DNA of 47,734 nucleotides, taken from Planctomycetes bacterium UBA1146. Lineage in GTDB: Bacteria > Planctomycetota > UBA8108 > UBA1146. The position numbers and the translations under genes were made by a program. The stretch covers positions 1-47,734 of the forward strand of contig CAWLAN010000001.1 of the NCBI GenBank assembly GCA_963854815.1, given 5' to 3'. The notes below the pieces were generated by a model. That model searched no databases and was not told the DNA's origin. It saw only the letters and a program-made list of their open reading frames with translations. This document shows, piece by piece, positions 1,700-37,229 of the stretch (within the stretch, counting starts at the first letter, position 1; each line of letters begins with the position of its first letter).

Positions 1700-2830
1700 T
1701 TAGGGGCAGCTGGTCTGATCACACTGAAGGGTATCGGTATCGGTCGGATCGGGGCCGCAACCAGTCTGGAGATTCGGCTCCGGAATCGGCGTGGCACCGG
1801 GAATGAACAGGCTCGAGAGCAAGAACACCGCATCCGCAACGTTGACTCCGCCATCATCGTTGACATCGCCGGAATCGCGACACCCCAGTGGAGTCGCTCC
1901 GGGTATGAACAAACTCGACAGCAGGAACACTGCATCGGCAACATTTACGCCCAGGTCGAGATTGCAGTCACCGCGGATGAAGGCATCCCCCGTTGGGCAG
2001 GTCGTGGGAGTTTCCAGCAGCGCGATTCCATTGACGTCGACCGGCATTGTTCCCAACAACTGCTCCTGGCCATCGCTATCGACCAGATAGGTCGAATCAT
2101 TCCCCTGCACCCAGATGAAGACATCCTCGTCATCCCAGTAGGTCAGACTACGGACCGGCTGCGCGCTGAGAGTGGCAGACAGAGGGATCGTCGTCGAATC
2201 GCAATTGTTGGGTCCAGTGACGGCGGGGCGCTCGAACTGTGGCGTTGAACCGGCCGTCCATCCTCCCGAGGCACGGAACACTTCTTCGCCAGCACCCAGA
2301 GCGATGGAATCACCACCGTCACTGCCGTCGTACTGGCACAGATCGAGTGGCCCACCGGTGATGGTGCTCAACTCGCAGTAACTGGATTCTCCCGTGGTGA
2401 GAGTATTCGTGATGGCACGAAGTTCGCCGGACTCGGTGAACTCGAGATCATTGAAATCGAGTATGGTAAATCCGATCAGGCTCAAGGTGAGATTGATGGG
2501 GTCGTATTCGAGCAACCACGGCGAAGGCGCCGGAGATGGCGGTAGCGAAAGCATCGCGAGCATGAACCAGTTGCCGGTGCTGGGATGGATCGCGATTCCC
2601 CTCAGCCCATCGATCTCGATGGCACCAGTGATCGATATCGGAGTCTCCGAAATCACCGCGAGCGTATCAACATCGAGCTCCCTGACCACATCGTCCTGAT
2701 CGGAAACAGTCAGGAAGGTGGTGACGAAGCAATTGACTGGCCCCGCCTGCCCCTCCAGGGAGGACGTGGTTACCGTCATGCACAGCAGCATCACCGTAGC
2801 AACACTCTTCAGAAAAATATTCGATTTCAT
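1700..2830 (-). CDS. secreted hypothetical protein with a C-terminal double dockerin-like (EF-hand) module
   Basis: N-terminal signal peptide (MKSNIFLKSVATVMLLCMTVTTSS). The C-terminus reads FIRGDCNLDLGVNVADAVFLLSSLFIPGATP...GDVNDDGGVNVADAVFLLSSLFIPGATP..CGPDPTDTDTLQCDQTSCP, which are two dockerin type-I-like Ca-binding segments. Confidence 0.8.
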   Translation of the reverse strand: MKSNIFLKSVATVMLLCMTVTTSSLEGQAGPVNCFVTTFLTVSDQDDVVRELDVDTLAVISETPISITGAIEIDGLRGIAIHPSTGNWFMLAMLSLPPSPAPSPWLLEYDPINLTLSLIGFTILDFNDLEFTESGELRAITNTLTTGESSYCELSTITGGPLDLCQYDGSDGGDSIALGAGEEVFRASGGWTAGSTPQFERPAVTGPNNCDSTTIPLSATLSAQPVRSLTYWDDEDVFIWVQGNDSTYLVDSDGQEQLLGTMPVDVNGIALLETPTTCPTGDAFIRGDCNLDLGVNVADAVFLLSSLFIPGATPLGCRDSGDVNDDGGVNVADAVFLLSSLFIPGATPIPEPNLQTGCGPDPTDTDTLQCDQTSCP

Positions 2831-2879: not shown

Positions 2880-4229
2880 CTAGCGCCCGAGCGCTTTTTT
2901 TAGCGATTTTTCCAGTTGGTCGTAACTCTGATATCCAGCTTCCCGGGACACAACGTTGCCCTTGCGGTCGATGAAATAGACCGTCGGCAGTCTCTTCAAA
3001 TGGTACTGCTGAAAACCAACGCCGTCGCCCCGCAGCAACATCCGTTGCTGGAGATCGTTCTCCTGAACGAACTCTCGAATACGGCTTCTGCTGTCATTGT
3101 CGGCATTAATTGCCAGCACGGCGACGTCCTGGCTCCTGTATTCCCTCTGGATCTTGCTGAGGTACGGAGACTCCGCACGACAGATACCTCACGAATAACC
3201 CCAGAAGGCCAGTAGCAACGTTTTGCCCCTGTACTCTTCCAGTGTCACCTGATTCCCGTCGACGTCATCGAGGGTGAAAGCGGGTGCCGGCTTGCCGATC
3301 ATCTTGCGGGCTCTCACGTCAGGATCGAGCGGTTGCGAGGCGATCTTCTTGCTCGCCTTCAGCAGTCCGGCCACCTCCTTCACCACGTCACCGAGGGGGC
3401 CTTTCTCGTGATCCTTGCGATCCTCGTTGAACATCTTCTCGGCGATCTCCACCGCCGCCAGGGACATTCCCTTGCGCAGAACCCTCACCACGGGTGCGAG
3501 AAACTCGTATCCGCTCTGAACTTCCTGCGATTCCTGTGCGTCGATAAGACCTGCCTCGAGGCGTTGGACCTTGAGTTGGCGCTTCTCGGTGCGGGCATTG
3601 TCGTCCTCGCCACGAATCAGCGTGGTAACCCATTCGGCAGACTTGAGGGATCCGCCTGCTGACATGTGAAGAGTTTCCGTGAACTCGGTCATCCTCAGAG
3701 CCCTGGCACCTCCGCGCACCACGATCTCGCTCCCGGCAAGAGTTCCAGTCTGAGTGATCATGCCATCTGCAGCGGTGACTTCTTTTCTCTCGACGGGAAT
3801 CTGGCGACGAAATCCGACCGGGGTTGCGTCAGCCCAGCCGAGTCCGTTCTCATGGCCACCAGCGCCGTGGACCGATAGCAACATCTCCATCACACCCGGA
3901 GAAAGCGGATCGAACAGTTCCGGTCTCGGTTTCCCCGTTCCCTGGATCAACATCGAACCGATGGGAAAACCACCCGGGAACGAACCATCCGATGCGACCG
4001 CTCTCCAGACCCAACGATGCCCACTCGGAGCAGGGATCTGGTAGATGGTCACCTCGTACTGGACCGCGTCCTCACCGCGAACTCTTTCGACACTCCAGAC
4101 GGCCTTGGCCGATTTCGTCTCTTGCTGCTGAACCGGAACTGCCATCGAGACGGCAGACAGGGGGGCGAGAAGAAGCAGTACAGGAAGGGACTTCCACAAA
4201 GCCCTCTCGGTCCAGCGGCGTGATCGCAT
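2880..4229 (-). CDS. TlpA/ResA-like thiol:disulfide oxidoreductase fused to a domain of unknown function of about 330 aa; predicted selenoprotein (TGA at 3189-3191 read as Sec)
   Basis: ORFs 3189..4316 and 2880..3119 share a frame ((3191-3119)/3 = 24 codons). Only one TGA and 23 sense codons separate them. The joined sequence ...GKPAPAFTLDDVDGNQVTLEEYRGKTLLLAFWGYS-U-GICRAESPYLSKIQREYRSQDVAVLAINADNDSRSRIREFVQENDLQQRMLLRGDGVGFQQYHLKRLPTVYFIDRKGNVV... is collinear with the TlpA/ResA fold (FWATWCGPCRAE...GLPTTFLID). The likely start is ATG 4229 (MRSRRWTERALWKSLPVLLLLAPLSAVSMA, a signal peptide), preceded by GGAGGAG. Confidence 0.7.
3158..3191 (-). promoter_or_regulatory. SECIS-like hairpin starting at the UGA
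   Basis: The minus strand is UGAGGUA-UCUGUCGUG-CGGA-GUC-UCCG-UACCUCA. It forms a 7-bp outer stem (UGAGGUA/UACCUCA), a 5' bulge, and a 4-bp apical stem (CGGA/UCCG) with a GUC loop. The apical stem starts 13 nt after the UGA codon. An alternative 7-bp apical stem GUGCGGA/UCCGUAC is also possible. Confidence 0.5.
3189..3191 (-). other. in-frame UGA, candidate selenocysteine codon at the first position of a U-G-I-C redox motif
   Basis: The minus strand reads GCC TTC TGG GGT TAT TCG TGA GGT ATC TGT CGT GCG GAG, which translates as A F W G Y S * G I C R A E. The stop aligns with the first Cys of the thioredoxin-fold CxxC. Confidence 0.65.
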
Positions 4230-4542
4230 CGAGAATCTCCTCCGATAAGAAAAAAGTAGGCCTCTTTGTCCAAATTCGAGGGGATGTGGGAATTCCATGC
4301 CCATCCGGGGTGCCACTCCATTTCACGGTAATCTGCCCGGGAATCGGAGGCAAGGGGTGTCCAATTGGGTACTGGTATCCTGGAACCGGCTCCACTACAC
4401 TAGGAGCCGATGCGTGAGCGATGGGCCCGTCCCGGGGATTTTCTGTGAGGGAATCGGGAAACGGGTGGCGTCTTACGGGATGTTGGGTCGGTGCCGCAGG
4501 TGTTCGACCACCCACGGTAAACCTCTCTGGAGGAGGGATGAC

Positions 4543-5256
4543 ATGTTGAACCGCGTTCAAGTTCTGCTGCTGATGGGGTTGTTGTTGATCTTCATGCCCG
4601 TTGCGGTAGGCACTCTCTTCAGTGCTGACGAAATAGGTCTTCGCAAGCCGCTCGATCTCCCAGCCGGAGGAGCTGGCGTGGACGACGAGGAAGAAGACGC
4701 TCCTGAAGCGATCAGTTTCTATGGCAGTGAGTTCGAGGGAGATTGTTTCGTCTTCATCGTTCCGGCCTATGGTTTCTGCGGAGAGACAGTTATCTTCGAC
4801 ATGATTCGTCAGGAAGTCGCCCAGACACTCAACCAGCTTTCAGCTGCCGTCGATTTTGCCGTCGTTGCCTACAACTCCACCACTTACATCTGGCGGCCCG
4901 AGTGCTGTAGTGCCTCGCCGGGCCACAAGGCATCGGCTCAGGCGTGGATGGGCACGCTAGCTCCCATCGAAAACCATTGCCTGCTCGATGCAGCTCTGGC
5001 AGGACTCGGTCTTGCACAGCAAGCCCCTGGTGCCTACAAGCAGGTCATCATCTGCGGCGCCCGCGAACCTTACTGCAACGGTTCCGGTGGAGGCAGTTAT
5101 GCCGACATCTGCCTGGAGTCGATCACGGCAGCCAACTTCGAGAATCTTCCGATCCACACCATCTACTTCACCAGTTCGTTCTATTCCGGCGAAGAGGCGT
5201 TCTACATCAACCTCTCTGCCATGAATGGTGGAACTTTCCGTCAGGTAGATTACTAG
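4543..5256 (+). CDS. secreted vWA-like domain protein (the MIDAS motif is not evident)
   Basis: ATG 4543 is preceded by GGAGGAGGG. Signal peptide MLNRVQVLLLMGLLLIFMPVAVG. The layout is vWA-like (..FVFIVPAYGF...FAVVAYNS...IIICGAREP...IHTIYF...MNGGTFRQV) but lacks a DxSxS motif. Confidence 0.6.
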   Translation: MLNRVQVLLLMGLLLIFMPVAVGTLFSADEIGLRKPLDLPAGGAGVDDEEEDAPEAISFYGSEFEGDCFVFIVPAYGFCGETVIFDMIRQEVAQTLNQLSAAVDFAVVAYNSTTYIWRPECCSASPGHKASAQAWMGTLAPIENHCLLDAALAGLGLAQQAPGAYKQVIICGAREPYCNGSGGGSYADICLESITAANFENLPIHTIYFTSSFYSGEEAFYINLSAMNGGTFRQVDY

Positions 5257-6577: not shown

Positions 6578-7327
6578 TTACCCACCGGTCTTCGAACCCT
6601 TGGGGGTCGACTCGGATTCGTTCTTCTCGCCACGCTCGCGCGCTTCCCTGGCTTCCTGGATCCGAGCACGCCGTTCATCCTCGACCCGCCGGGTACGGAT
6701 CACCATTCCATATGCACGTACCAATGGATTCTGCACGGTTCGTCCCTCGACCACGTCGCGAATCGCCATGTCGAGGTACAATTTCCTCTCGAGCTTCTTT
6801 CCCCAGACATCATCGTCGATAGCCCCGTGGTAGACAATCTGGCCTCGATTCACCACCAGATATGTAGGACTGACCTGCACTCCGAAGGCCTCTGCCAGAC
6901 GTCCGTCCAGATCGATGAGGTAAGGGTGCTTGACCGAAAATTTCTCGAGCCAGGGGCGAATCTTCTCCGGATGGGCGAAAAATGCAGAGTCGATGGAAAC
7001 CCACTTCACTCCCTGCTTGCCCCAGCGACGAATCATCGGCGTGACTCGATGCTGGGCATAGAGCCGCTGGCTGAACCGACACTCCGGGAGGGTCCATTCC
7101 AGAACCACCACCTCTTCGGAAAGGTTGGCGAGATCAAAGGGCTTGCCATCGATATCGTCCAGAACCAGAGCCGGAGACGGCTTTCCCAGAAGACTGGCAG
7201 GATCGGCAAGATGGGTTACCTTCTCCACCGTCGCTGGCGCATCAGGGGCAACCACGGGAGGCTCCTGCAATCTGTGGATGAATGATAAATTCAGGCTCAG
7301 AAAAATTACTGGCAACAGCGATACCAT
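6578..7327 (-). CDS. secreted thioredoxin-fold (redoxin-like) protein with a single-Cys site and a basic/acidic C-terminal tail
   Basis: Signal-like N-terminus MVSLLPVIFLSLNLSF. Redoxin layout GKPSPALVLDDIDGKPFDLANLSEEVVVLEWTLPECRFS...VSPTYLVVNRGQIVYHG. The motif LPEC replaces CxxC. Confidence 0.7.
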   Translation of the reverse strand: MVSLLPVIFLSLNLSFIHRLQEPPVVAPDAPATVEKVTHLADPASLLGKPSPALVLDDIDGKPFDLANLSEEVVVLEWTLPECRFSQRLYAQHRVTPMIRRWGKQGVKWVSIDSAFFAHPEKIRPWLEKFSVKHPYLIDLDGRLAEAFGVQVSPTYLVVNRGQIVYHGAIDDDVWGKKLERKLYLDMAIRDVVEGRTVQNPLVRAYGMVIRTRRVEDERRARIQEAREARERGEKNESESTPKGSKTGG

Positions 7328-9243: not shown

Positions 9244-9600
9244 ATGAGTCGCCCCTATGAAAAAGTCGTGCTGGTGTGTATCCACGGTCGCACTTGTCCT
9301 CGACAGGGATCGCTGGAGACCTGTGAAGCGCTCCGTGAAGCGGTATCCACAGCAGGGCTCACGGATAAGATCCGGATCGTGAAATCCGGCTGTCTCGCCC
9401 AGTGCGGTCACGGACCGATGGTCGCCATCGAACCGGACGGATCCTGGTACGGTAGCGTCACCGCCAAAGATGCAGAGGAACTGTTCTCTGGCCCTATCCT
9501 GTGCGGAACCCTTCTGGAGAGACTGCGCCACCAACCCAAGCGGCAAGGAAAGAACGTCATCGCGCCCGATCAGTGGACCATTCCCCCCTCGAGGGAGTGA
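9244..9600 (+). CDS. thioredoxin-like [2Fe-2S] ferredoxin family protein
   Basis: ATG 9244 lies 5 nt after GGAGGAGG. The cysteine pattern VCIHGRTC...[18 protein letters not shown] is typical of the (2Fe-2S) thioredoxin-like ferredoxin family. Confidence 0.75.
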
Positions 9601-9791
9601 ATCCGAGCCTCCAAACCTCCCCAGGACCGCAAAAGAACCGCTCATCCGGCCAGATTCGATCTACACAGGAGCTGCCGAGCGATATCCTCAGACATATTAG
9701 CCGGATTGGCCGATCAGAGTCCTCCACGGCGGAGGAACCGGCCAAGCGACAGCCAGGGGCGAACGGGACCCGATCCCGTGGAGTATTCGCG

Positions 9792-11876
9792 ATGACGCCT
9801 GACATCACCAGGATGCGGAACATCGGCATCAGTGCCCATATCGATAGTGGCAAGACGACCCTCACCGAGAGGATCCTCTTCTACACCGATCGAATCCATA
9901 CCATCGGCGAGGTCCGGGGAAAGGACGGCCGGGGAGCAACGATGGATTCGATGGAACTCGAGCGTGAGCGCGGAATCACGATCCAGTCCGCTGCAACCTA
10001 CATCGAGTGGGATGGAAACCACATCAACATCATCGACACTCCAGGACACGTCGACTTTACCGTGGAGGTAGAGCGGGCATTACGCGTGCTGGATGGAGCC
10101 ATCATGGTTCTGTGTGCGGTATCGGGAGTCCAGAGTCAATCGATCACCGTAGACCGTCAGATGCGCCGGTACAATGTTCCACGGATAGCATTCGTCAACA
10201 AATGCGATCGAATCGGTGCGGATCCGTTCAGAGTCTGCGATAAATTGCGTGAAAAGTTACGATTGAATGCCGTGATGTTCCAGATCCCCATCGGGCTGGA
10301 GAAGAACCACCAGGGTGTCGTTGATCTGGTCAAGATGGAAGCGATCTACTTCGATGGGGACAATGGCGAGATTGTCCGGCGAGAAGAGATTCCCGAAAAT
10401 CTCATGGAGATCGCCGAAGAACGCCGTGAAATTTTGCTCGATGCCGTGTCCCACTATTGCGACGACCTGATGGAAGCGATGCTCGAGGACAGGGTCACTG
10501 AAGAACTGATTCATGAAGCAACTCGCAAGGGTGTCACAACGCTTGAACTTTGCCCGGTCTACTGCGGAGCCGCCTTCAAGAACAAGGGTGTGCAACCTTT
10601 GATGGACTCGGTAAACAGATATCTCCCCAGTCCGGTCGATGTCGAGAACTTCGCTTTCAATCCTGATAACGAAGAAGAACAGTTCCTCGTCACCAACAAC
10701 CCTGACGATCCCCTGCTCAGTTATGCGTTCAAACTCGAAGATGGACCATACGGACAGTTGACCTATGTGAGGATTTACCAGGGAAGACTGGTCAGGGGAG
10801 ACTTCGTCTATAACGCACGTACCGGAATGAAGGTGAAGATCAGCCGTATCGTGCGAATGCACGCAGATAACATGGATGAAATCAACAGCGCCCAGGCCGG
10901 CGATATCGTCGCCCTCTTCGGTATAGATTGTGCTTCAGGAGACACCTTCCGTTGCAAGAACACGAATCTCATCCTGGCTTCGATGCACGTCCCGGAACCA
11001 GTCATCCACCTGGCAGTGAAACCCATTGATCGTAAGTCTTCAGACAACATGGCGAAGGCCCTCCAGAGATTCACCAAGGAAGATCCGACATTTCGTGTCG
11101 CTTTCGACCCCGCGAGCCACGAGACCGTTATCTCAGGGATGGGTGAACTCCACCTCGAGGTGTACATCGAACGGATGAAACGAGAATTCAGGGCAGAGGT
11201 GATGACGGGTGCACCTAAGGTGGCTTTTCATGAGCGAATCAGTTGCCCTGTCGAATTCGACTTCACCCACAAGAAGCAGACCGGTGGGTCAGGCCAGTAC
11301 GCCCGTATCATCGGCACGATGGGACCCCATCCAGAGGGTATTTTCCATTTCGAGAACCGGATCAGCGGCGGTAAGGTTCCGCGCGAATACGTCTCCTCGG
11401 TAAAAAAAGGCTTCAAACAGTGCATGGAAAAGGGACTCCTGATCGGGGCTCCTGTCGACGGACTCGAAGTGGTCCTTCTCGATGGTGGCCACCATGCGGT
11501 CGACTCTTCAGACATGGCATTCCAGACAGCAGCCAGGAACTGCTTCCGCGAATACTACAACAATGGCAAACCCGAGGTTCTCGAACCACTGATGATGGTG
11601 AGTCTCGAGGGCCCCAGCGAATTCCAGGGCAACATGGTCGGCACTCTTCTCAAGCGACGAGGATCCCTCAAGGGTACCCTGGACGAGGAGGGGTATGTAC
11701 GAATCGATGCCGAGGTACCGTTGGCTGAGATGTTTGGTTACGCCACGACTCTGCGTTCGGCGACTCAGGGAAAAGCGGAGTTCACCATGGAGTTCAACCG
11801 CTACGCTCCCGCTCCTCGCGCAGTCCAGGAAGATCTGATCGCCTCGTACAGGAATGAACTGGAACTGAAGAGTTAG
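9792..11876 (+). CDS. fusA: elongation factor G
   Basis: [32 protein letters not shown]...[24 protein letters not shown]...NKCDR, with full five-domain EF-G length. The start at ATG 9792 gives the canonical N-terminus. The listed ORF start at 9501 adds 97 low-complexity residues that overlap the ferredoxin gene. Confidence 0.95.
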
Positions 11877-36113: not shown

Positions 36114-37229
36114 GTGAACGCTGAGGTTAAAACTCGATTGCGCTCCATCGAGCAACTTCTCGAACGAATCCGCGATGCGACGCGCCATGACGAGCAAAAG
36201 AAGCGTCTCAACAAACTCGAGAAAGAAATGTCCGCCGTGGGATTCTGGGATGATCGCGAAAAGGCGGAGACCGTCATCGATCAGATGAAGAAGGTCAAGG
36301 AATCGGTGCAGAGCATCGAGAAGCTGGCCAGTCAACTGTCGGATACCCTGGCACTGTACGAACTCGCCGAAGCGGAGAAAGACGCAGAGTCCCTCGCCGA
36401 GGTCGAGACCGATAGCCTTCGTCTGCTCAAACTGGCCGATGGGCTCGAACTGAGGACCTTGCTTTCTGGAAAATACGCTTCGGCCAATGCATATCTCGAG
36501 ATCCAGTCCGGAGCTGGCGGCACCGATGCCTGTGACTGGACCCTGATGGTCCAGCGGATGTATCTACGCTGGGCGGAACAGCAGAAATTCCGCACCAAGA
36601 TCATCGACGAGCAATTCGCTGAGGAAGCCGGGCTGAAATCATCGACGATTCACGTCGTCGGTGACTATGCCTACGGGTATCTCCAGGCTGAATCGGGAGT
36701 TCATCGCATCGTTCGGATCTCGCCTTTTGATGCACAGGCGAGACGCCAGACCGCCTTCGCCTCGGTCCGAGTGATTCCGGAAACCGACGTTTCTGAAACT
36801 GTCGAGATCACTGAGTCCGATCTTCGAATCGATACCTATAGAGCCAGCGGTGCGGGAGGGCAGCACGTCAACACCACCGATTCCGCGGTCAGGATCACTC
36901 ACATCCCCACGGGGATCGTCGTGCAATGCCAGAACGAACGCTCTCAGCACGCCAACCGGGCCCAGGCGATGAGAGTGCTCACTGCTCGCATCCTGGAGGC
37001 ACAGGAGCGCCAACGCAGGGAAGAACTGGATCGACTCCAGGGCACCAAGAGCGATATCGCTTTTGGCAGCCAGATTCGCTCCTATGTCCTGCATCCTTAC
37101 AAGATGATCAAGGATCATAGAACCGAGCATGAAACCAGTAACGTCGACGATGTACTCGATGGAAACCTCCAACCCTTTATCGAGAGCTGGCTGCGCCATC
37201 AAACCCGAGCAGGCCAATCCACCGAGTAA
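36114..37229 (+). CDS. prfB: peptide chain release factor 2 (single uninterrupted ORF, no +1 frameshift site)
   Basis: SPF tripeptide ([13 protein letters not shown]) and GGQ motif ([20 protein letters not shown]). GTG start after GGAGAG. Confidence 0.93.

Follow-up and report, generated by a model that had tools for sequence, protein, structure and literature searches.

In the DNA analysed here, a stretch of 47,734 nucleotides (nt) from Planctomycetes bacterium UBA1146 (contig CAWLAN010000001.1 of assembly GCA_963854815.1, hereafter the window), two open reading frames (ORFs) that follow one another in the same frame of the minus strand, separated by a TGA codon, are the two parts of one gene. 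Comparison of sequences makes it very probable that this gene is a genuine selenoprotein gene. Its product would be an exported thiol-disulfide oxidoreductase of the TlpA/ResA type with a U347-G-I-C350 active site, selenocysteine (Sec, U) being inserted at the TGA (coordinates in Table 1). An earlier note on this DNA, made from the letters without database searches, had proposed that the split ORFs are a single gene. The analysis bears this out, as the frame remains open through the TGA and a single Redoxin/AhpC-TSA domain straddles it.

The upstream ORF (4316/4229..3189) terminates in ...GKTLLLAFWGYS followed by the TGA at 3191..3189. Beyond this codon the same frame holds 102 more sense codons (GICRAESPYLSKIQ...ALGR) before a TAG is reached at 2882..2880, and the second listed ORF, of 79 amino acids (aa), starts at an internal GTG (3119) located 23 codons past the TGA. 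Reading through the TGA gives the peptide FWGYS-U-GIC-RAESPYL; the single TGA, the 23 sense codons that separate it from the 79-aa ORF, the coordinates and the read-through peptide are all as the earlier note had them. The start used here (MRSRRW) agrees with the gene calls of the homologues P0001 and P0003-P0005, and two in-frame codons further upstream, GTG 4316 and ATG 4304, may also be starts. Every gene caller, and NCBI as well, annotates these loci as two pieces, a fate that had been described as routine for genes of this kind.

The domain assignment rests on searches with the joined sequence, in which U was replaced by C. Both Pfam Redoxin (PF08534; 1e-22, 81 bits for a cut-off of 26.6) and Pfam AhpC-TSA (PF00578; 1.8e-22, 80 bits for a cut-off of 26) match residues 311-441 in one stretch that spans the TGA. 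The closest solved structures in the PDB are those of ResA (4nmu, 6.8e-22) and ResA of Bacillus subtilis (1st9, 3e-17), followed by TlpA (1jfu, 1e-10) and CcmG/DsbE. The structure alignment runs without gaps through the active site ('lafwgysCgiCraespyl' versus 'lnfwgtwCepCkkefpym'), and the TGA therefore sits on the N-terminal, attacking Cys of the CxxC motif, which is where the earlier note had placed it. The cis-Pro in 'LPT' is conserved too (P415, 2985..2987); the fold, a CxxC-type motif where helix α1 begins and the cis-Pro loop, by which the TlpA-like thioredoxin-fold superfamily is defined, are all found in the protein. Apart from U347, C350 is the sole cysteine of the mature protein, which leaves U-G-I-C as the one redox pair that it can form.

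The TGA is conserved far beyond the window. When the joined sequence was compared with 5.8 billion proteins, 20 close homologues were retrieved (48-94% identity), all from metagenome-assembled genomes (MAGs) of Planctomycetota; none spans more than 77% of the query, and the 19 that are complete end, without exception, exactly at ...FWGYS. At the DNA level, 34 marine-clade loci, which include 23 species-level representative genomes, all have TGA at this point, followed by 101-102 open and conserved codons, the closest of them (92%) being listed as 'Planctomycetes bacterium UBA1146'. Carriers of the gene include the MAGs DCAA01 (UBA1146), PAIH01 (NAT2), GCA_964412635.1, GCA_964422295.1, JAAZXB01 and JADHSM01. 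About 30 more distant members, with endings such as FWGYT/A/G/I, FWGFT, FWALL, FWSLM and others, were added when 1.84 billion cluster representatives were searched exhaustively with a profile. Among the 22 representatives with a full match to the N-terminal domain, 20 stop at the TGA column and the other two are full-length Cys forms. TGA was again found in the DNA of six distant subgroups and of seven further metagenome contigs, in subfamilies that share about 20-30% identity. The codon thus occupies one and the same alignment position in all the Sec-type loci examined (47 of 47), far more than chance would give, and is followed in them by 101-115 open codons. With TGA present in 23 species-level genomes and in distant subfamilies, this is no fresh nonsense mutation.

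The Cys forms are single polypeptides that align exactly with this column: P0089 (460 aa) reads FWSSS-C-RSC-RAEAP and P0132 (475 aa) CWSIA-C-KEC-RAEAP. The Cys codon is TGT in the gene for P0089 (locus L039) and TGC in a close relative, locus L047. Two features by which selenoproteins are recognized, a conserved UGA with an open and conserved frame behind it and Cys homologues aligned to that UGA, are thus both found in this family. In a comparison of the window with locus L003, the nonsynonymous (dN) and synonymous (dS) divergences are 0.053 and 0.83 after the TGA, and 0.091 and 0.99 before it. By these values, the downstream part is under purifying selection and is at least as constrained as the upstream part.

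A candidate for the signal that would recode the UGA, a bacterial selenocysteine insertion sequence (SECIS), was found in the segment 3140-3195, which the earlier note had singled out for a hairpin search. It is a 17-nt hairpin (3162..3178) marked by frozen synonymous sites and compensatory changes. Its folding energy is -7.9 kcal/mol, a stability that none of 200 shuffles attained. Synonymous sites were analysed on 25 distinct sequences of the marine clade, aligned by codon. Of 143 degenerate columns in which the amino acid is invariant, just 10 use a single codon, and six of these are the Ser at -1 and the Arg-Ala-Glu-Ser-Pro at +4 to +8 of the TGA. Ranked by length, the invariant nucleotide runs of the gene are headed by the 15-mer CGTGCGGAGTCTCCG; next comes TCGTGAGG, which lies around the UGA, and all others are of 5 nt or less. 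Synonymous divergence falls to 0-0.25 in codons +1 to +11, as against 0.5-0.84 elsewhere.

The stem itself is kept with equal strictness. Its seven upper pairs are standard in 203 of 203 cells, that is, in 29 of 29 distinct sequences and all subfamilies. Double changes within pairs are seen in L037 (U-A to C-G) and in L043-L046 (G-C to A-U and C-G to G-C), where they accompany Ala-to-Arg and His-to-Tyr replacements, and in the clade of the window a G-C pair of the stem has become G-U. None of 500 shuffles reached the observed covariation score or paired fraction, and registers slid along the alignment were 31-68% paired. Each of the 47 Sec-type loci contains a single copy of the pattern TGA-N14-GGAGKCTCC, which is absent from both Cys-type loci; elsewhere in the window, the apical 9-mer GGAGKCTCC has two matches (2640 and 7257), which have neither an upstream TGA nor a stem and are at chance level. 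Folding energies of the 17-mers range from -7.9 to -11.4 kcal/mol among the Sec forms, and the same 17 nt in the Cys form L047 give -1.2, with a peptide at this site that is almost unchanged from that of the Sec forms. The other Cys-type locus, L039, retains only a different hairpin of 4 base pairs (bp). The pair formed by L046 (Sec) and L047 (Cys) is a natural Sec/Cys exchange coupled to the loss or gain of the SECIS, in which a change from Arg to Val (AGG to GUC) breaks the hairpin.

The model for bacterial SECIS elements calls for a stem-loop that follows closely on the UGA and has a G in its small apical loop (PMC1088965), and such a stem-loop is what the window contains. By its predicted fold, the geometry is nearly that of the SECIS of Escherichia coli fdhF, which was checked against 5,420 E. 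coli genomes. Both are 17-nt hairpins, which begin 10 nt (here) and 11 nt (fdhF) past the UGA, and in both an A-U pair closes a small loop whose first base is G and which includes U/G-C (A[GUC]U here, A[GGUC]U in fdhF). Unlike its fdhF counterpart, the hairpin described here has a perfect 7-bp stem without a bulged U and a triloop in place of a tetraloop, and it is more stable (-7.9 to -11.4 kcal/mol, versus -4.2 kcal/mol).

Some observations weigh against the reading of this gene as a selenoprotein gene. A weaker lower stem of 3 bp, which would lengthen the hairpin to 3157..3183, is only partly conserved, and the 101-nt context folds no better than its shuffles (z = -0.97), the local 17-nt hairpin alone being significant. 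Part of the nucleotide conservation of the hairpin reflects constraint on the protein, as the conserved peptide CRAE(S/A)PH is encoded by overlapping nucleotides. Rfam searches, run with gathering thresholds on the whole window and in E-value mode on 3080-3260, gave just two tRNAs and noise, and no match to the hairpin; this result is uninformative, since bacterial SECIS elements are poorly covered. Searches for selA, selB, selD and a tRNA-Sec gene detected none of them, either in the window or across 712 kb of related loci; ARAGORN was applied to the window and 26 loci for tRNA-Sec, and the E. coli SelA, SelB and SelD proteins were searched by tblastn against the 712 kb. In addition, all the source sequences are MAGs or metagenome contigs, and it is by inference that we speak of the function of the N-terminal domain, of the identity of the substrate and of the electron donor.

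The only tblastn match to the E. coli Sel proteins was a weak one, between SelB and the G domain of a neighbouring elongation factor G (EF-G). This EF-G paralogue (9501-11876, plus strand), which is kept in the neighbourhood of the selenoprotein gene, carries all five EF-G domains and is not SelB; its length is 791 aa from a GTG by the ORF listing and 694 aa by gene call. Complete selA/selB/selD sets are present in some Planctomycetes (PMC4807772). A mechanical scan of the window for other TGA-split ORF pairs returned 145 candidates (57% GC), of which none was convincing besides the gene under study, but the scan is noisy.

Could the UGA be read through without Sec? A near-cognate tRNA (Trp, Cys or Arg) might decode it, the hairpin being then a generic stimulator of read-through or pausing. 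We know of no bacterial precedent for conserved non-Sec read-through at a catalytic residue, and this account seems to us improbable. It would fit the lack of Sec-decoding genes in the window and the 712 kb of related loci, as well as the lack of an Rfam SECIS match. However, it is the catalytic nucleophile that is recoded, and this residue is Cys in relatives, so that only Sec or Cys would keep activity, and the spacing, the stem length and the G-first apical loop agree with both the bacterial SECIS model (PMC1088965) and fdhF. Taking the annotation at face value, as every gene caller and NCBI do, would instead mean a 346-aa secreted protein that ends at the TGA and a 79-aa ORF that is translated alone, from GTG 3119, or never. 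This is very improbable, since the stretch of 23 codons that leads from the TGA to the GTG is conserved in its protein sequence and holds the resolving Cys and the RAExP motif, and since a thioredoxin fold cut after strand β1 would leave neither piece foldable; moreover, Cys-form relatives are single polypeptides and selection is as strong downstream as upstream.

Beyond the in-frame stop itself, nothing speaks for a gene inactivated by a recent nonsense mutation, or for a TGA created by an assembly error, and the chance of either is minute: the same TGA recurs ahead of an intact and constrained frame in 47 loci, which are independent of one another and come from numerous samples and species. 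Taken together, the conserved TGA, the open downstream frame and a dN far below dS leave, for practical purposes, no room for a decayed gene, a misassembly or a pair of independent genes. An alternative genetic code with UGA as a sense codon (code 4 or 25) deserves hardly any credence either, because TGA is otherwise an ordinary stop here: it terminates 15 of the 24 Pfam-backed genes of the window, with full-length Pfam coverage, and prfB, which encodes release factor 2 (RF2), is present at 36114..37229 on the plus strand (TIGR00020, 487.6 bits for a cut-off of 370). Several homologues of the selenoprotein gene also use TGA as their own true terminator, and what relatives align with the UGA is Cys rather than Trp or Gly. 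The prfB match covers model positions 3-353 of 353; the gene appears to be one uninterrupted ORF and seems to be without a programmed +1 frameshift site, a feature that is common in bacterial prfB genes. Sec insertion at the UGA of a single gene is, accordingly, the interpretation that we retain as very probable.

Selenoproteins with a thioredoxin fold and a UxxC motif (Prx-like/TlpA-like) have been known since 2004-2008 and are abundant in marine metagenomes, and fusions of such proteins to unknown domains have already been reported (PMC1088965, PMC2398784, PMC13188914). The replacement of Cys by Sec in thioredoxin-fold proteins, to which the earlier note had appealed, is indeed an established class in these studies. 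It goes by the names of 'Prx-like thiol:disulfide oxidoreductase', 'thiol:disulfide interchange protein', 'Redoxin family protein' and 'UGC-containing TlpA family', of 'Prx-like 1' and 'Prx-like 3' in the Global Ocean Sampling (GOS) study, and of 'Thiol-disulfide isomerase-like' and cd02966 in the Sargasso Sea study (PMC1088965, PMC2398784, PMC13188914). The protein described here shares with the Prx-like UxxC selenoproteins the PF00578 and PF08534 fold, Sec as the first residue of UxxC, a marine origin, a hairpin in the coding region with a G in its small apical loop, and gene calls truncated at the UGA. It has the features by which Prx-like thiol:disulfide oxidoreductases are defined, PF00578 and a UxxC motif in place of the TxxU of peroxiredoxins (PMC13188914, Table 1), and belongs to them by this operational definition; WP_010940744.1 and MGB1650493.1 are their published reference sequences. 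In contrast to them, it has an extension of about 280 aa, β-rich and helical, behind its signal peptide. The share of Sec differs as well, with about 20 of 22 full-length-type representatives here, whereas Prx-like 1 of the GOS study counts 225 Sec for 2,740 Cys forms.

With ResA of Bacillus, TlpA of Bradyrhizobium and CcmG/DsbE, the protein has in common the FWG-x-W/S-C-x-x-C context, the cis-Pro loop and a predicted export. It differs from them in having Sec for the first Cys, a large N-terminal domain where they have a single membrane anchor, and neither cytochrome c maturation nor Sco genes nearby. Its scores stay below the NCBIfam orthologue cut-offs for ResA (NF002854, 96 versus 170 bits), TlpA (NF047696, 58 versus 230) and DsbE/CcmG (TIGR00385, 41.8 versus 123). 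By analogy, then, it would work like ResA, TlpA and DsbE/CcmG, yet it is an orthologue of none of them. The two NCBIfam models of Sec-containing relatives, NF041054 (ResA-like WAxxUGC; 41.5 versus 300 bits) and NF053656 (TUGYCR; 19.3 versus 100 bits), are not reached either. These families likewise combine a TlpA/ResA-like fold with an active-site Sec, but the motif here is U-G-x-C within FW(G/A/S)xxUxxCRAExP, and not UGC or TUGYCR. Assignment to the peroxiredoxins proper was also considered and rejected, as the context LAFWGYSUGICRAE lacks a PxxxTxxC/U motif and, among named proteins, ResA and TlpA come closest to it. Since the definition of Prx-like UxxC proteins applies and the scores lie under the cut-offs of the ResA, TlpA, DsbE and Sec models, the protein adds to a known class a member that is new and has so far gone unannotated. 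What sets it apart is the size and β-rich nature of its N-terminal domain, a strong excess of Sec over Cys forms, an extremely conserved SECIS and a conserved neighbourhood.

The region in front of the thioredoxin fold had been described in the earlier note as one uncharacterised secreted domain of about 330 aa. That a large domain is fused to the thioredoxin fold stands, but the region is not a single domain: it comprises a signal peptide of about 30 aa, a β-rich part of about 190 aa and a helical bundle of about 70-80 aa. The predicted signal peptide shows a basic n-region, a hydrophobic core of 16 residues and S-M-A before V31, and AlphaFold gives residues 1-38 a predicted local distance difference test (pLDDT) score below 65. 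An AlphaFold2 model of residues 1-346, computed from 42 family sequences, is confident, with a pLDDT of 86.6 and a predicted template-modelling (pTM) score of 0.77, and includes the first strands of the thioredoxin fold; its helices in the linker region span residues 231-249, 257-274, 280-297 and 303-310. Neither Pfam nor NCBIfam matched anything in the N-terminal 300 residues. Foldseek comparison of the N-terminal model with the PDB gave weak matches, with template-modelling (TM) scores of 0.2-0.38, to open β-sheet proteins that bind lipids or lipoproteins (LolB/LolA, lipovitellin/MTP). Because all of these matches have low TM scores, no fold family is claimed for this domain, and the modelled likeness to LolB/LolA and lipovitellin/MTP is a hint, not an assignment.

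Two genes for secreted, Cys-rich proteins flank the selenoprotein gene (Table 1). The downstream one, of 376 aa, has about ten Cys and repeats of the type GDCNLDLGVNVADAVFLLSSLFIPGATP, and matches no Pfam family. It adjoins the selenoprotein gene in all marine loci, and it is also adjacent in the distant loci L037 (39% identity, 1e-71) and L049 (29%, 3e-32). The divergent neighbour, of about 237 aa, is present in all syntenic loci, and its copy in L049 is 54% identical to that in L003. Both persist beside members of the family that share just ~20-27% identity. From this gene order, it is plausible that the Cys-rich proteins are clients, substrates or partners of the enzyme, the 376-aa one being a possible operon partner.

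Other features of these loci may be mentioned. A second AhpC/TSA-Redoxin-like gene, of 249 aa, lies about 2.3 kb away in the window (6578-7327, minus strand) and is syntenic in all marine loci; its site is atypical in having a single Cys (VLEWTLPECRFSQ), and it matches NF041054 weakly (31.7 bits) and is not split by a stop. In L039 (11956-14603), the gene for the Cys form P0089 is followed by two genes for di-haem oxidoreductases (PF06537, DHOR) and by an M10 peptidase gene, with no dockerin-like neighbour. The syntenic locus L019 (QNYK01000079.1) comes from a MAG labelled 'Bacillota bacterium', and is probably a mis-binned or mislabelled contig. In the MAG NAT2 (PAIH01), the gene is found on two contigs, L013 and L014, which are identical around the TGA, and this points to redundancy of the bin.

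Table 1. Position of the selenoprotein gene, its parts and its neighbours in the window.
Feature	Position	Strand	Details
Complete selenoprotein gene	4229..2880	minus	449 codons; ATG 4229; proposed Sec-UGA is codon 347; stop TAG 2882..2880
Predicted Sec-type (export) signal peptide	4140..4229	minus	Residues 1-30 (MRSRRWTERALWKSLPVLLLLAPLSAVSMA then VP); read from sequence
β-rich N-terminal domain	3543..4112	minus	Residues 40-229; AlphaFold2 model, 12 strands and one helix
Helical bundle and linker	3300..3539	minus	Residues 231-310; joins β-domain to thioredoxin fold; AlphaFold2 model
ResA/TlpA-like thioredoxin-fold (Redoxin) domain	2907..3299	minus	Residues 311-441; Pfam and PDB matches
In-frame TGA, proposed selenocysteine codon	3189..3191	minus	Residue 347, attacking position of UxxC
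TGT, Cys350, resolving cysteine	3180..3182	minus	Only Cys in the whole protein; column invariant in alignment A2
Candidate bacterial SECIS hairpin	3178..3162	minus	GUGCGGA-GUC-UCCGUAC; 7 bp, G-first triloop; begins 10 nt past the UGA
Downstream neighbour, secreted Cys-rich protein	1700..2830	minus	376 aa; two dockerin-like repeats; 49 nt away, same strand
Divergent neighbour, secreted Cys-rich protein	4543..5256	plus	~237 aa; inside listed ORF 4297-5256; no Pfam match

What is established about Sec insertion in bacteria suggests a mechanism. Serving as a SECIS, the hairpin would bind SelB·GTP·Sec-tRNA(Sec), and the SelB complex would deliver Sec-tRNA(Sec) to the UGA in competition with RF2. 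The signal peptide would then export the protein to the periplasm where, by analogy with ResA/TlpA/CcmG, the low-pKa selenolate of U347 would attack a substrate disulfide, C350 would resolve the mixed selenenylsulfide, and a membrane electron donor of the CcdA/DsbD type would re-reduce the U-C pair. More speculatively, the β-rich N-terminal domain might provide targeting to a substrate or to the envelope, and both Cys-rich neighbours might be the clients of the enzyme.

For annotation, the finding means that all the public records examined here present this gene as two items, a 'redoxin domain-containing protein' (about 345 aa) and an orphan ORF (79-101 aa), which is a systematic error; as no NCBIfam model covers the family, annotation pipelines will keep truncating the gene. 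The hairpin, with its 17 nt, its compensatory changes and its matched controls of the Cys form, is an unusually clean natural candidate SECIS that could be used for covariance models or heterologous expression. Current knowledge of how selenoproteins work is left unchanged, and the conserved neighbourhood of three genes leads to a concrete hypothesis about the substrates of the enzyme. A family dominated by Sec in marine and other Planctomycetota implies that uncultured lineages decode Sec and need selenium. It is conceivable, if rather unlikely, that the three genes form a Planctomycetota-specific and essentially obligately selenium-dependent redox module of the envelope, in which a Sec-containing TlpA-like reductase, joined to an open β-barrel that binds lipids or lipoproteins in the manner of LolA/LolB, matures both Cys-rich neighbours. 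If true, such a module would tie the marine supply of selenium to the assembly of cell-surface proteins in Planctomycetota.

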